DNA from: a virus
Taxonomy: Duplodnaviria; Heunggongvirae; Uroviricota; Caudoviricetes
Virus record (IMG/VR): IMGVR_UViG_2703718821_000008
DNA: 2,923 nucleotides
Strand: one strand, 5' to 3'
Numbering within the stretch: position 1 is the stretch's first letter; each line of letters opens with the position of its first letter. Shown here piece by piece: positions 1 through 2,738 of the stretch. A program made the translations under genes and the position numbers. Under the pieces are notes generated by a model. The model searched no databases and was not told where the DNA came from. It saw only the letters and a list, made by a program, of their open reading frames with translations.

Positions 1-252
1 CATCGCCTTTTCGATCGCCGGTAACAGAGCCTGCATTTTTTCAACAGCATCAGGGGTGTCTTTATCCAGCCAACGGAAAATTTTCTGGGTATTACGGGCC
101 AGGGCTTCCGGATGGCTGTCGTCGTACAGTTCAGGGAACGTCATCCCCAGTTCGAAATAAGTCCGGGCTATTTCAGCTGCGGGAACTTTCTCACCGTCAG
201 GATATGCCCAGGCATTCATCGCCATGCGGATGTGCTCATGCTTGATTTTCAT
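1..252 (-). CDS. YdaT-family protein (prophage CII-like regulator), N-terminal part only; gene runs past the left window edge
   Basis: Reverse complement of 1..252 translates without stops from ATG (252..250) as MKIKHEHIRMAMNAWAYPDGEKVPAAEIARTYFELGMTFPELYDDSHPEALARNTQKIFRWLDKDTPDAVEKMQALLPAIEKAM. Its ATG overlaps the TGA stop of the upstream Cro-like gene (ATGA at 249..252). The MKIKHEHI start and the position next to a cro-like gene match my recollection of the YdaT family; not verified by alignment. Not in the ORF track because it is truncated by the window edge. Confidence 0.6.
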   Translation of the reverse strand, partial: MKIKHEHIRMAMNAWAYPDGEKVPAAEIARTYFELGMTFPELYDDSHPEALARNTQKIFRWLDKDTPDAVEKMQALLPAIEKAM

Positions 253-464
253 GAATCATTCCTCATTTCGTGCGAGGTGTTATTCTTCTTTTTGTACAGC
301 TCTGGGTTGTATTTCAATTCACCACCAGTAATTTCATCCAACTCAATTGCTCGAAGTTTTGGAATAACAGATTTCCACCGAACAACAGCCACGTGTGAAA
401 TTCCCAGAGCCTCTGCTACTAGCCGCTTTTTTTTGAAATAGCGTAGGACATCATCTTTAAACAT
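249..464 (-). CDS. Cro/DicC/YdaS-family small HTH DNA-binding protein (cro analog), 71 aa
   Basis: Minus-strand ORF (track 249..500). I place the start at the internal ATG 464..462 (MFKDDVLRYFKKKRLVAEALGISHVAVVRWK...), which has a G-rich Shine-Dalgarno (GGGGG, plus coords about 471..475) 6 nt upstream. The track start at 500 is a TTG lying inside an operator palindrome. The HTH-like segment is RLVAEALGISHVAVVRWK. The gene is divergent from the repressor gene. Confidence 0.7.
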   Translation of the reverse strand: MFKDDVLRYFKKKRLVAEALGISHVAVVRWKSVIPKLRAIELDEITGGELKYNPELYKKKNNTSHEMRNDS

Positions 465-493
465 AAATTCCCCCTGTAAAACCGAACCTAAAG

Positions 494-507
494 GTAACAA
501 TAGTTAC
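494..507. promoter_or_regulatory. Operator-like palindrome O1 GTAACAATAGTTAC
   Basis: Perfect 5-bp inverted arms GTAAC/GTTAC with a 4-bp spacer. It overlaps the spacer and -10 of the putative cro-like promoter and is immediately followed by the ATG at 508. Confidence 0.6.
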
Positions 508-541
508 ATGATAATGTCAACCATAGTGACATCCATTGGTA

Positions 542-555
542 GTAACATTGGTTAC
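542..555. promoter_or_regulatory. Operator-like palindrome O2 GTAACATTGGTTAC
   Basis: Same GTAAC-N4-GTTAC architecture as O1. It is immediately followed by the ATG at 556 and contains a -10-like TAACAT (543..548) about 7 nt upstream of that ATG, consistent with a leaderless repressor transcript. Confidence 0.6.
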
Positions 556-1230
556 ATGAACACTACTATTAGCGAACGCATCCGAAAGCGTCGAAGAGAC
601 ATAGGTCTAACCCAACAGCAGGTTGCAAAGGCTATCGGCGTCACCCGTGTATCCGTAACAAAGTGGGAAAATGGTTCAACAAAACCGGACGGTGAGAATT
701 TACATCTGCTGTCAAAACTGTTTTCCAAATCACCTGAATGGATTCTTTATGGGAAAGATATTCACGATCAAGTCGATGATTTGCGATTGAATCAACTCCC
801 CTACCTTAGTGACAACATCACCCGGTTGCCCGTTTTAACGTGGGAACAGGCTGGTTACTGGGATATGAGCTACCCAGTAACCGAAATCCCTGGTATTAAG
901 AATTGGGTTGATGTCATGACAAAAACATCTGAAAACTCTTTTTTATTGCGCGTTGAGGGAGATTCAATGACAAACTCTAACGGTTTGCCAACGATCCCCG
1001 ACGGCTCCACGGTGTTGATCACTCCATGCTCTGGCAACATTGGGGAGATGGCGGGAAAGATTGTTCTAATCCAACTAGAAGGAATACCAACTGTAACACT
1101 GAAAAAAGTCGCAATTGATGGCCCAAACATCTACCTACTGTCATTAAATCCGCTTTACAAGCCTATAGAACTCAATGGTCGCTACACCATTAAAGGTAAA
1201 GTCTCACAAATCCATCAATACTTAGATTGA
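556..1230 (+). CDS. CI-type prophage repressor: N-terminal XRE-family HTH plus C-terminal S24 (LexA-like) autopeptidase domain; 224 aa (240 aa if started at 508)
   Basis: Track ORF 508..1230. The HTH is LTQQQVAKAIGVTRVSVTKWENG (about 607..675). An Ala-Gly candidate cleavage site sits in the linker (EQAGYW; GCT GGT at 850..855). The S24 catalytic serine motif is EGDSM (Ser codon 964..966) and the catalytic lysine is in VTLKKV. Start 556 is preferred over 508 because it gives a normal-length N-terminus before the HTH and leaves a 91-bp divergent control region; neither ATG has a Shine-Dalgarno. Confidence 0.85.
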   Translation: MNTTISERIRKRRRDIGLTQQQVAKAIGVTRVSVTKWENGSTKPDGENLHLLSKLFSKSPEWILYGKDIHDQVDDLRLNQLPYLSDNITRLPVLTWEQAGYWDMSYPVTEIPGIKNWVDVMTKTSENSFLLRVEGDSMTNSNGLPTIPDGSTVLITPCSGNIGEMAGKIVLIQLEGIPTVTLKKVAIDGPNIYLLSLNPLYKPIELNGRYTIKGKVSQIHQYLD

Positions 1231-1232
1231 CC

Positions 1233-1260
1233 AAAAGCCCGCATATATTGCGGGTTTTTC
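1233..1260 (+). terminator. Rho-independent terminator downstream of the repressor gene
   Basis: Stem CCCGCA (1238..1243) pairs with TGCGGG (1249..1254), loop TATAT, followed by TTTTT (1255..1259) and preceded by AAAA (1233..1236), so it may work in both directions. It starts 3 nt after the repressor stop. Confidence 0.7.
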
Positions 1261-1291
1261 ACACGCCTTTATGTAACTTATAGAACACGCA

Positions 1292-1320
1292 TTGACTCAA
1301 CGAGTAACTTCTGTTACCTT
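1292..1320 (+). promoter_or_regulatory. PL-like promoter with embedded operator O3 (GTAACTTCTGTTAC, 1304..1317)
   Basis: TTGACT (1292..1297), 17-bp spacer, TACCTT (1315..1320). A third exact GTAAC-N4-GTTAC palindrome overlaps the spacer and -10, with the same geometry as O1 at the cro-like promoter. A GTAAC half-site lies at 1273..1277. The -10 is a poor match to TATAAT, so the promoter call is tentative. Confidence 0.5.
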
Positions 1321-1496
1321 CATTGCGTACCCACCCCGTCCCACAGAACGCCGGGCAATACTTCGAGTTACCCGGCAGTGGTCAGGGGTTAAGTAGCCAG
1401 CCCGAGGCGTATGAACATGACGGCGGGAACACTTTGTATAACAGCGCAGCAGGTTTTTAGTTCCGCTACCCGGCGTTAAGGGGAAATGAGGTCAAC

Positions 1497-2343: not shown

Positions 2344-2382
2344 TTTCTGGTGATTCGGCGGAAATGGATATCCGCCATTTTT
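2344..2382 (+). ncRNA. dicF: Candidate DicF-like small RNA ending in an intrinsic terminator
   Basis: The sequence TTTCTGGTGATTCGGCGGAAATGGATATCCGCCATTTTT resembles my recollection of the 5' end (UUUCUGGUGA...) and the GGCGG/CCGCC-U-run terminator of E. coli DicF. It sits between the 124-aa ORF and the dicB-like gene, as dicF does in Qin. The downstream sequence AAAGTGTATTTTGTGATGCGGTGAATGCGG also resembles the K-12 dicF-dicB spacer from memory. The exact 5' end is unknown and the candidate is shorter than the 53-nt K-12 DicF. Confidence 0.45.
2357..2382 (+). terminator. Rho-independent terminator (3' end of the DicF-like element)
   Basis: Stem GGCGGA (2357..2362) pairs with TCCGCC (2371..2376), 8-nt loop AATGGATA, followed by ATTTTT (2377..2382). 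Confidence 0.6.
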
Positions 2383-2549
2383 AAAGTGTATTTTGTGATG
2401 CGGTGAATGCGGCTAAGCGCACGCGGAACAGTTAAAGCTAAAAACAGCGTTATGGGTGATTCTGTATTCCGGCGTTAATTGTTAACTGGTTAACGTCACC
2501 TGGAGGCACCAGGCACCACATCACAAAATTCATTGTTGAGGACGCGATA

Positions 2550-2738
2550 ATGGAAACGTCACTACCAAACGTTAATACGTCTGAAGGGTGTTTTAATATT
2601 GGTATTCTGCTCAGTAACCGGGAGTTTACTGAAGATGCCATCAGGATGAGAAAATATGAGCCTTATCTTCTCAATGATAATTCCATTCTCTCCAGAATTG
2701 CCCTTATTAAACTTGGCATTTTCGGAGGGCAGCAGTGA
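2550..2738 (+). CDS. dicB: DicB-family cell-division inhibitor (62 aa)
   Basis: ATG 2550 with GAGGA Shine-Dalgarno (2538..2542) 7 nt upstream. Translation METSLPNVNTSEGCFNIGILLSNREFTEDAIRMRKYEPYLLNDNSILSRIALIKLGIFGGQQ. The N-terminal half (LPNVNTSEGCF.IG...SN..FTEDAI..RK) matches my recollection of E. coli DicB, which is also 62 aa; the C-terminal half diverges. Confidence 0.8.
   Translation: METSLPNVNTSEGCFNIGILLSNREFTEDAIRMRKYEPYLLNDNSILSRIALIKLGIFGGQQ

Follow-up and report, generated by a model that had tools for sequence, protein, structure and literature searches.

An OR-type control region with a probably leaderless repressor start in a lambdoid prophage of Escherichia coli ST130

Results

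Gene content of the locus and comparative set

The window, that is, the whole stretch of 2,923 nucleotides analysed here, contains an HTH and S24 repressor gene, a P22_Cro-like gene and a YdaT gene, then genes for DUF1391, DicB and DUF1482 (Table 1). YdaT is an analogue of CII (PMC8630535). The repressor and cro-type genes are divergent, the first lying on the plus strand and the second on the minus strand. Pfam identifies HTH_3 (1.6e-15) and Peptidase_S24 (1.5e-18) in the repressor, which also has an Ala-Gly site (QAG) and the GDSM serine, with the Lys columns invariant. Judged by these sequence features (S24, Ala-Gly and a Ser/Lys dyad), the repressor would be SOS-cleavable.

For comparison, homologous loci were retrieved through recognition-helix peptides, and 30 of them were aligned without gaps on the repressor ATG. 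They come from E. coli, Salmonella, Yersinia, Arsenophonus, Hamiltonella, Buttiauxella, Kosakonia, Erwinia, Pantoea phage AH07 and others; because the members of the set are related, counts over the 30 loci do not represent independent events. The distance from the cro ATG to the repressor ATG is 91 nt in the window and 91–97 nt in the 29 loci for which a cro start was found.

Table 1. Coordinates of genes and control elements in the window
Feature	Position	Strand	Basis
YdaT-family gene (cII analogue), 5' part, runs off the window	1..252	-	Pfam YdaT_toxin 1.1e-08, RefSeq annotation
Cro-type gene, 71 aa, strong Shine-Dalgarno AGGGGG	249..464	-	Pfam P22_Cro 5.5e-16
-10 TACCTT of leftward promoter, 18-nt spacer	491..496	-	Conservation
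O1 operator (OR1 / Qin Oc equivalent)	494..507		GTAACAATAGTTAC, exact palindrome
16-codon in-frame 'extension' (ATG508, ATG514)	508..555	+	Judged non-coding operator/promoter DNA
-35 TTGACA of leftward PR-type cro promoter	515..520	-	Sequence
O2, degenerate middle operator	517..530		TCAACCATAGTGAC, 10/14 match to O1
O3 operator (OR3 / Qin Oa equivalent)	542..555		GTAACATTGGTTAC, exact palindrome, abuts repressor ATG
Putative -10 TAACAT of rightward PRM-type repressor promoter	543..548	+	Conservation, dicA register
Proposed repressor reading frame, 224 aa	556..1230	+	HTH_3 and Peptidase_S24
Hairpin and T-run after repressor gene, terminator-like	1233..1259	+	Inverted repeat AAAAGCCCGCA/TGCGGGTTTTT
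PL-type promoter/operator of ydfA-dicF-dicB operon	1292..1320	+	Third exact palindrome

Three operators between the divergent genes

A sequence-only reading of this DNA had described a duplicated operator-ATG unit offering two alternative repressor starts. The underlying observation is correct: GTAACAATAGTTAC is followed directly by ATG at 508–510 and GTAACATTGGTTAC by ATG at 556–558, the two ATGs are 48 nt apart in the same frame, and a repeat search of the window returns the pair as an 18-nt direct repeat of 89% identity with that spacing. The notion of a duplicated unit fails, the two palindromes being O1 and O3 of a three-site operator. Counted as the pattern GTAACNNNNGTTAC, that is, GTAACN4GTTAC, the operator has three exact matches in the window (at 494, 542 and 1304) against 0.01 expected, and no shuffle among 200 reached three. 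Recent duplication was considered as the origin of the direct repeat and rejected: the GTTACAT at the end of each copy is operator sequence and makes up the outer part of a palindrome of 18 bp, whose full form, ATGTAAC-N4-GTTACAT, is present in 7 of the 30 O3 sites. The AT after each palindrome is part of this conserved GTTACAT flank. A full-text literature search with four operator strings found no paper.

Conservation sets the operators apart from the DNA between them. O1 averages 1.79 bits per position over the 30 loci, compared with 0.38 in the spacer at 531–541, and is unchanged in E. coli relatives of 84% identity; O3 averages 1.82 bits. O3 lies directly against the conserved ATG in all 30 ungapped loci, and in one additional locus (L033) a 3-nt ACT spacer separates the two. 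The middle site is less regular, with a mean information of 1.31 bits and CAAACAACAGTTAC at its offset in 13/30 loci; because an operator search of the window at up to two mismatches missed it, the assignment of O2 rests on position and conservation. Its centre is 23 bp from that of O1 and 25 bp from that of O3 (centres 500.5, 523.5 and 548.5). The locus thus has three related operators, spaced by about two helical turns and overlapping both promoters, in positions kept across the 30 loci. The degenerate O2, the in-frame ATG514 and the third palindrome at 1304–1317 are all absent from the sequence-only reading.

Proposed back-to-back promoters overlapping the operators

The leftward, cro-type promoter shares DNA with two of the operators: O1 overlaps its spacer and -10, and the left part of O2 its -35. 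The -10 reads TACCTT in 25/30 loci and TAnnnT in every one, with a conserved AAAGG flank, and TTGACA or TTGCTA/TTTGCT occupies the -35 offset in 30/30. The leftward transcript is predicted to start near 484 and to carry a leader of about 20 nt with a Shine-Dalgarno sequence.

For the rightward promoter, the hexamer at -13 to -8, inside O3, is TAnnnT in all 30 loci (TAACAT in 28), and the -1/+1 dinucleotide at the repressor ATG is CA in 30/30. TAACAT occupies positions 2–7 of the 14-mer operator, the same as TAGCAT in Qin dicA. No recognisable -35 is present, the sequence at 520–525 being ACCATA. Taken with the dicA precedent, this arrangement places the predicted transcription start probably at C555 or A556. 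A good rightward -10-like element, GATAAT, also occurs at 510–515 and could give a leader of about 34 nt.

The corresponding hexamer in O1 is TAACAA in 26/30 loci and makes a poor -10 because it never ends in T (0/30). O1 was therefore rejected as a second leaderless promoter serving ATG508: its hexamer fits TAnnnT in none of the 30 loci, and conservation of the ATG is lacking. The leaderless geometry that the earlier reading saw at both ATGs is accordingly supported for ATG556, with its conserved O3-ATG junction, its invariant TAnnnT and CA and the mapped start of Qin dicA as precedent, but not for ATG508.

A generic sigma-70 promoter scan of 440–600 called nothing, as the two proposed -10 hexamers agree with TATAAT in only 3–4 of 6 positions (TACCTT on the leftward side at only 3/6). 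The promoter assignments therefore rest on conservation and dicA homology.

The repressor start codon

Several lines of evidence place the start at ATG556. M556 aligns with residue 1 of P22 C2 (PDB 1adr, 2r1j), to which the N-terminal DNA-binding domain matches with E 2.2e-12; homologues at 54% identity or less begin at the M556 position, and this ATG is common to all 30 loci. Translation from here yields MNTTISER..., whereas an extended product would begin MSTIVTSIGSNIGYM... and the RefSeq model predicts MSTIVTSIGSNIGYMNTT.... The RefSeq/PGAP start is ATG514, a third in-frame ATG, which gives 238 aa.

Neither ATG508 nor ATG556 has a ribosome-binding site, as the sequence-only reading had noted: anti-Shine-Dalgarno duplexes are -3.9 kcal/mol at ATG508, +0.6 at ATG514 and -3.0 at ATG556 against a window background median of -2.5, compared with -9.4 for the cro-like gene and -5.9 to -10.0 for the other window genes. 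Over the 30 loci the mean strength is -3.2 kcal/mol for the repressor and -9.0 for cro, and a good repressor Shine-Dalgarno was found in none of them.

The 16 codons upstream of ATG556 do not behave as a conserved part of the protein. Codon -16 (ATG508) is ATG in only 5/30 loci, which argues against it as an alternative start, and codon 508 is ATA in all seven sampled members of an allele carried by about 693 E. coli genomes. Codon -14 (ATG514) is a TAG stop in 14/30 loci and ATG in 9/30. The ATG there is contained in A-TGTCAA, which arises from the complement of the leftward -35 (TTGACA+T). Consistent conservation of the 16-residue extension in homologues, which the earlier reading had named as a finding that would count against it, is not seen: the extension is stop-closed or lacks a start codon in 13/30 loci, and where it is open its pN/pS, estimated from 8 codons only and confounded by DNA-level constraint, is 0.84 with flat codon-position variation, against 0.43 in the gene body. 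Neither an upstream start nor an extension peptide, as two functional starts would call for, is conserved among the homologues. ATG556 is the only conserved repressor start; in our reading ATG508 is a by-product, and neither it nor ATG514 is a start. The RefSeq start codon is probably wrong, lying 14 codons too far upstream.

A further operator at the dicB operon

The third palindrome lies in the promoter of the dicB operon, with a -35 TTGACT at 1292–1297, the operator GTAACTTCTGTTAC at 1304–1317 and a -10 TACCTT at 1315–1320. Its half-sites are conserved in relatives, and Qin dicBp, which is repressed by DicA (PMC10448788), has the same layout (TTGACC...GTTAGTCATGGCTAATCT). Between this promoter and the repressor gene, a terminator scan placed the post-repressor hairpin on the minus strand (1254–1238). 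Rfam at gathering thresholds gave no match in the window and, with an E-value threshold over 1230–1500, only a chance-level Trp_leader match; the conserved operon leader at 1325–1496 has a fold no more stable than shuffles (z = 0.15).

Discussion

A model of the switch

Taken together, these results lead us to read 491–558 as the OR-type control region that serves the immunity module of a lambdoid prophage (E. coli ST130), with a leaderless repressor start at ATG556, a reading to which we assign a probability of about 75%. O1, O2 and O3 would bind repressor and Cro between two back-to-back promoters and, by analogy with DicA and with PaaR2/YdaS, we infer that the two proteins fill the sites with opposite preference. 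The leftward promoter, covered by O1 and O2, would drive the cro-like and YdaT (cII-like) genes, and repressor on O1/O2 would shut off cro while stimulating its own weak promoter, as DicA does at Oc. From the rightward maintenance promoter, with its -10 within O3, the repressor mRNA would begin with the AUG or 1 nt before it, giving leaderless translation; the message is probably leaderless or nearly so, as in known relatives. The repressor promoter would be blocked once excess repressor, or Cro, filled O3. Through the palindrome at 1304–1317, the dicB-operon promoter would come under the same repressor.

Among the alternatives, the one that survives best retains ATG556 and supposes a leadered mRNA: transcription from GATAAT would start near 522 and leave a leader of about 34 nt with no Shine-Dalgarno sequence, and O3 would act as a roadblock instead of through promoter occlusion. 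GATAAT matches TATAAT at 5/6 in the window and the proposed PRM-type promoter has no -35; YdaT-activated, PRE-type read-through transcripts probably exist too, by analogy with CP-933P. In relatives, however, the hexamer varies (AACAAT, AGCAAT, ACAAAT, ATAAAT, GCAAGT or TTAAAT), whereas the TAnnnT of O3 is invariant. Moreover, a leader of this kind would be expected to be translated poorly, and the start of the homologous dicA has been mapped to the -10 that lies in its operator rather than upstream. We regard this arrangement as unlikely.

Less probable still is the gene model in RefSeq, in which ATG514 (238 aa) or ATG508 (240 aa) is the initiation codon of a conventional, leadered mRNA whose promoter lies to the left of 508, so that O2 and O3 fall inside coding sequence. 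The frame is open from 508, PGAP picked ATG514 here and in every relative inspected, and ATG, GTG or TTG occupies codon -14 in 11/30 loci (E. coli, Salmonella, Arsenophonus and two Yersinia), the extension being open with such a codon at -14 or -16 in 14/30. Yet the stop at codon -14 in nearly half of the loci, the rarity of ATG at codon -16 and the duplex energies at both ATGs speak against it. There is also no space for a promoter and leader, as the 43–49 nt to the cro ATG are filled by the leftward promoter. The extension residues that are conserved (MST, SNIGY) fall exactly on the -35 complement and on O3, the remainder varying freely, and P22 C2 and DicA both start at the M556 position.

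The use of both starts, with a short maintenance repressor encoded by the leaderless PRM-type transcript and an extended establishment repressor made from ATG514 (or ATG508) on long YdaT-activated PRE-type or read-through transcripts in the E. coli/Salmonella/Arsenophonus branch, strikes us as very improbable: nothing in the sequence forbids it and the frame is open with a start at -14 or -16 across that clade, but the extension has no coding signature and no Shine-Dalgarno sequence, half of the family lacks it, and DNA constraints account for its being open. Fourteen random codons would be free of stops with a chance of about 0.5.

The preferred reading, a single leaderless start at ATG556, bears on annotation as well as on regulation. 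The RefSeq 238-aa start, equivalent to ATG514, is carried in 701 of 5,426 complete E. coli genomes, and the lack of a ribosome-binding site at the true start also leads gene callers to misplace it in records of related phages. The locus adds an uncharacterised immunity type (GTAAC-N4-GTTAC) to the prophage repressors predicted to be leaderless, and many prophages of Enterobacterales keep the arrangement of operator, -10 and AUG that was mapped for dicA. The clear operator consensus can be used to predict the repressor regulon, including the dicF/dicB cell-division operon.

Comparison with known systems

The closest relatives of the switch are the Qin DicA/DicC, P22 c2/cro and phage 21 cI/cro pairs. 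A further parallel is CP-933P PaaR2/YdaS/YdaT, in which, as in the window, the repressor lies opposite Cro-like and YdaT genes across an intergenic region of about 91–97 bp. For PaaR2, with its intergenic region of 97 bp, 5' RACE and N-terminal sequencing showed the mRNA to be leaderless (PMC8630535), and dRNA-seq gave 0-nt leaders for racR and ymfK (PMC4681348 Table S3). PaaR2 and RacR have no close sequence kinship to the window repressor, lack S24 and use other operator repeats.

The repressors of phage 21 and P22-like phages share 38% whole-protein identity with the window repressor, and its identity to the repressor of any deposited phage does not exceed 46%. In lambda imm21 (phage 21), ATG AAT ACA comes immediately after the operator ATTTAAGATGTCTTAACT; the P22/phage 21 half-sites are ATTTAAG/CTTAAAT, compared with ATGTAAC/GTTACAT here. 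A literature search for a leaderless P22 c2 mRNA or its PRM transcript start found no accessible paper.

Qin has the same divergent layout with three operators and, like the window, a further operator on the promoter of its downstream ydfA-dicF-dicB operon. The HTH domain of DicA is 49% identical to that of the window repressor (E 6e-22), and DicC is 39% identical to the Cro-like protein. In Qin dicA the order is TTAGCATTAGCTAA, CT and ATG, with the -10 TAGCAT, in place of TAACAT, in the operator next to the repressor gene. The dicA mRNA start has been mapped 3 nt before the ATG, at operator position 14 (PMC4681348 Table S3), whereas here the ATG directly follows the operator and the predicted leader is 0–1 nt. 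The half-site is GTAAC here but TTAGC/GTTAG in Qin; the window repressor keeps its S24 self-cleavage domain (224 aa compared with 135 aa for DicA), and a YdaT-type cII analogue follows cro, unlike in Qin. When DicA occupies the distal operator Oc, it switches dicA on and represses dicC (PMC3441716).

Lambda and the window both have divergent cI-type and cro-type genes with a tripartite operator between them, and both encode an S24 repressor (PDB 3bdn, E 1.6e-15). The lambda cI mRNA from PRM begins at the AUG and has no Shine-Dalgarno sequence (as cited in PMC4681348 and PMC8630535). The operators are 14–18 bp here versus 17 bp in lambda and lie nearer to the start codon by about 11 bp: the end of O3 is at -1, that of lambda OR3 near -11. 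Because the centre of O2 falls at about -32 with respect to A556, rather than at -42 as that of OR2 does with respect to PRM, lambda-style activation from O2 is not simply transferable, and the autoactivation geometry is probably of the DicA type, from the distal site. In all, the current understanding of lambdoid switches is unchanged, and the locus is an ordinary prophage switch of the lambda/P22/DicA type.

Putative operator sites and gene setting

At both candidate starts proposed for the repressor gene, a 14-bp palindrome stands directly before an ATG (aaaGGTAACAATAGTTACATGATAATG... at 491-516; ...GTAGTAACATTGGTTACATGAAC at 539-561), and the two ATGs, 508 and 556, lie 48 nt apart in the same frame. 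A repeat search of the window returned an 18-nt direct repeat of 89% identity that covers both palindrome-ATG junctions. The exact palindrome GTAACNNNNGTTAC occurs three times in 2923 bases, at 494, 542 and 1304; in 200 dinucleotide-preserving shuffles it was expected 0.01 times on average, and none reached three copies. The arrangement described in the sequence-only reading is correct and not due to chance. Its report of a missing Shine-Dalgarno sequence is likewise borne out: predicted anti-Shine-Dalgarno duplexes have energies of -3.9 kcal/mol at ATG508 and -3.0 at ATG556 (+0.6 at ATG514), compared with a window-wide median of -2.5 and values of -5.9 to -10.0 for the other genes of the window. 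That reading had overlooked the degenerate middle site O2, the third exact palindrome and a further ATG in the same frame at 514, where RefSeq starts the gene.

Features of the operator region and the dicB operon in the window
Feature	Coordinates	Direction	Detail	Basis
P22_Cro-family gene	464..249	leftward	strong Shine-Dalgarno	Pfam
YdaT-family gene		leftward	beyond P22_Cro-family gene	Pfam
Leftward promoter	520..491	minus strand	-35 TTGACA 520..515, 18-nt spacer, -10 TACCTT 496..491	sequence
O1, putative operator	494-507		palindrome, then ATG508	sequence
O2, putative operator	517-530		degenerate	sequence
O3, putative operator	542-555		palindrome, then ATG556	sequence
HTH_3 + Peptidase_S24 repressor		rightward		Pfam
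GDSM codons of repressor	958-969	rightward		sequence
Terminator-like hairpin		rightward side	downstream of repressor gene	
DUF1391 (ydfA-like), hypothetical gene, DicB, DUF1482		rightward	in this order after hairpin	
Second operator-like site	1273-1286		GTAACTTATAGAAC	sequence
PL-like arrangement	1292-1320		after repressor gene; -35 TTGACT 1292-1297, GTAACTTCTGTTAC 1304-1317, TACCTT 1315-1320	sequence
ydfA-dicB untranslated leader	1325-1496		hairpin GCCGGG...CCCGGC	
DicF-like small RNA	2344-2382		terminator hairpin 2357-2376 + T-run	
STnc100-like stretch	2375-2560		between DicF-like element and dicB	Rfam, sub-threshold

The window is 100% identical to an E. coli ST130 prophage integrated beside yccA. 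Its gene layout is that of the K-12 cryptic prophage Qin (dicC-dicA-ydfA...dicF-dicB) and, more broadly, that of lambdoid immunity regions. The repressor HTH domain is 49% identical to DicA and the Cro-like protein 39% identical to DicC; in a PDB search the repressor N-terminal domain matched P22 C2 (E 2e-12) and the whole repressor lambda cI (E 1.6e-15). Among deposited phages, none has a repressor more than 46% identical. The region is present in 701 of 5426 complete E. coli genomes, 693 of which carry an allele at 80-90% DNA identity.

We aligned 30 homologous loci without gaps, anchored on the conserved ATG, plus one locus with a 3-nt insertion; being related by descent, they make the locus counts that follow non-independent events. 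The loci come from E. coli, Salmonella, Yersinia, Arsenophonus, Hamiltonella, Buttiauxella, Kluyvera, Erwinia, Edwardsiella, Kosakonia, Rahnella, Klebsiella, Pantoea phage AH07 and others, and were retrieved with recognition-helix peptides and therefore share operator specificity. Over the 30 loci, O1 carries 1.79 bits of information per position, O3 1.82 and O2 1.31, against 1.20 for the first coding codons and 0.38 for the 531-541 spacer. The palindromes are thus conserved above protein-coding sequence while the spacer is randomised, and divergence is therefore sufficient for conservation to inform.

Centre to centre, the three sites lie at intervals of 23 and 25 bp, as lambdoid OR1-OR2-OR3 do. 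O1 overlies the spacer and -10 of the leftward promoter, and O2 its -35. The -10 reads TAnnnT in all 30 loci (TACCTT in 25), and the predicted start near 484 leaves a leader of about 20 nt that holds the cro Shine-Dalgarno. The AT that follows both palindromes is part of a conserved GTTACAT tail, and O3 is a full 18-bp palindrome, ATGTAAC-N4-GTTACAT, in 7 of the 30 loci. Because this tail belongs to the operator, the 18-nt repeat, previously taken for a duplicated operator-ATG unit, is accounted for without any role for ATG508.

Start codon of the repressor

The PDB search pairs the first residue of P22 C2 (MNTQLMGERIR...) with residue 17 of the 240-aa translation, the methionine of ATG556 (MNTTISERIR...). 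N-terminal lengths were compared across database homologs, as the sequence-only reading had proposed: homologs at least 66% identical are annotated with the extension upstream of ATG556, and those at most 54% identical start mostly at the equivalent of ATG556. Only 5 of 30 loci have ATG at the codon equivalent to ATG508 (ATT in 13, ATA in 5, ATC in 4), and each of seven sequences sampled from the common E. coli allele has ATA, which tells against a second start there. At the position of ATG514, 14 loci have a TAG stop, 9 have ATG and 2 GTG or TTG; an in-frame start codon before a stop is absent in 13 of 30.

In loci with an open extension, its conserved 'residues' are translated DNA elements: MS(T) comes from A+TGTCAA, one base added to the complement of the leftward -35 TTGACA, and SNIGY from O3. 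The eight codons between them have a pN/pS of 0.84 and nearly equal codon-position variability (0.45/0.44/0.55), compared with 0.43 and 0.33/0.26/0.59 for the first 70 codons after ATG556, a contrast that is supporting evidence only, given the small sample and DNA-level constraint. Only 43-49 nt, occupied by the cro leader and promoter, separate the cro ATG from ATG508 and ATG514, and a promoter with its leader does not fit upstream of either. We place the repressor start at ATG556 with a probability of about 85%; the extension is operator and promoter DNA.

The practical point is the start-codon annotation of this repressor family. In each of the eight genomes examined (the window, giving 238 aa, and seven relatives) RefSeq/PGAP uses the ATG514 equivalent, and records of related phages err either way, upstream or downstream. 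The inconsistent annotations concern 514-516 of the window, 579 of L036 and 477 of L037, two comparison loci. In the lambda imm21 record, cI begins 26 codons after the P22-C2-type MNTQLMGERIR start, and Pantoea phage AH07 is annotated 8 codons upstream, at GTG. Since a ribosome-binding site is missing, the PGAP, imm21 and AH07 starts look like gene-caller artefacts.

Putative rightward promoter and a probable leaderless mRNA

Within O3, TAACAT occupies -13 to -8 from the A of ATG556, with TAnnnT there in 30/30 loci, and positions -1/+1 are CA, a favoured pyrimidine-purine start, in 30/30. The equivalent O1 hexamer is TAACAA and ends in T in none of the 30; this conserved asymmetry between otherwise similar sites fits -10 function in O3 only. 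The leaderless geometry formerly suggested for both ATGs is supported for ATG556 but not for ATG508. No recognisable -35 was found for the rightward promoter, and a generic promoter scan made no call in the operator region. A leadered transcript could arise from GATAAT at 510-515, which is present in the window but not conserved in relatives.

A leaderless transcript from ATG556 has parallels. Beside dicA the Qin operator reads TTAGCATTAGCTAA, with CT-ATG directly after it. In the mapping by Romero et al., dicA transcription begins 3 nt ahead of the ATG, and that of racR and ymfK at the ATG itself (PMC4681348 text, Table S3); the former places the dicA -10, TAGCAT, at 14-mer positions 2-7 and the start at position 14. 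By analogy, this register predicts that transcription in the window begins at the purine A556 or, less probably, at C555. For PaaR2 of CP-933P, opposite YdaS/YdaT across 97 bp, 5' RACE together with N-terminal sequencing showed a leaderless mRNA (PMC8630535), and in lambda imm21 a P22-type operator abuts ATG AAT ACA much as O3 abuts its ATG. We regard a repressor mRNA with a leader of 0-3 nt as likely, supported though not proven. With an mRNA that begins at the AUG, operator, -10, transcription start and translation start would all fall within about 17 bp.

In a single locus, L033 of Celerinatantimonas diazotrophica (1535-1554), ACT parts the palindrome from the ATG. Qin dicA and phage 21 share this 3-nt ACT-ATG junction, which suggests that the abutting form arose when these bases were lost.

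O2 is centred near -32, whereas its lambda equivalent is centred at -42. O1 is centred at about -55.5, and in Qin the distal site Oc, which precedes the mapped dicA start by about 56 bp, activates dicA (PMC3441716). Autoactivation, if any, probably follows DicA.

The dicB operon and a model for the switch

The PL-like arrangement after the repressor gene repeats the design of the leftward promoter with its operator and matches the layout of Qin dicBp (TTGACC...GTTAGTCATGGCTAATCT), which DicA represses (PMC10448788). The second operator-like site, 31 bp upstream of the exact palindrome, has an exact left half and a right half matching at 3/5 positions; relatives carry GTACCTTTTGCAAC there, and the site could be of OL2 type, though unusually spaced. 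The ydfA-dicB leader is conserved above adjacent coding sequence and shares long invariant stretches with relatives that are 84% identical overall; it is predicted to fold no more stably than shuffles (z 0.15), has no Rfam match, and may act as a processing or nut-like element. The DicF-like element has retained the 5' TTTCTGGTGA seed and the terminator hairpin, is 19 nt short of the K-12 DicF body in alignment (a 17-nt block plus 2 nt), and gave no Rfam match to DicF even at E<=1. The STnc100 match scores 32.7 bits (gathering score 47; E 2e-05).

At low to moderate concentration, repressor dimers would occupy O1 and O2 and block the cro/ydaT promoter, probably aiding RNA polymerase at the weak rightward promoter, with its -10 inside O3; they would also occupy the site at 1304 and silence the dicF/dicB operon. 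At high concentration O3 would fill and repressor synthesis stop. The repressor carries Ala-Gly and GDSM, both S24 features, and its SOS cleavage would allow Cro to be made, presumably binding O3 first.

GDAM replaces GDSM, with Ala for the S24 catalytic serine, at residue ~135 from the ATG556 methionine in the common E. coli allele (~693 genomes) and a Salmonella relative (L002, L014, L005, L038-L041); Ser is kept in the window, L013 and more distant relatives. From sequence, GDAM repressors should be unable to self-cleave, and their prophages would then not be SOS-inducible by the usual route. DicA, for comparison, has lost the entire S24 domain.

Comparison with known systems

Searches of published papers for operator strings of the GTAAC-N4-GTTAC immunity type returned no match. 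Each element of the region has a characterised precedent, in lambda cI/PRM, OR3 of P22 and phage 21, Qin DicA/DicC/dicBp and CP-933P PaaR2/YdaS/YdaT; new are only the GTAAC-N4-GTTAC immunity specificity and the conservation of the dicA-type operator/-10/AUG register across this repressor family.
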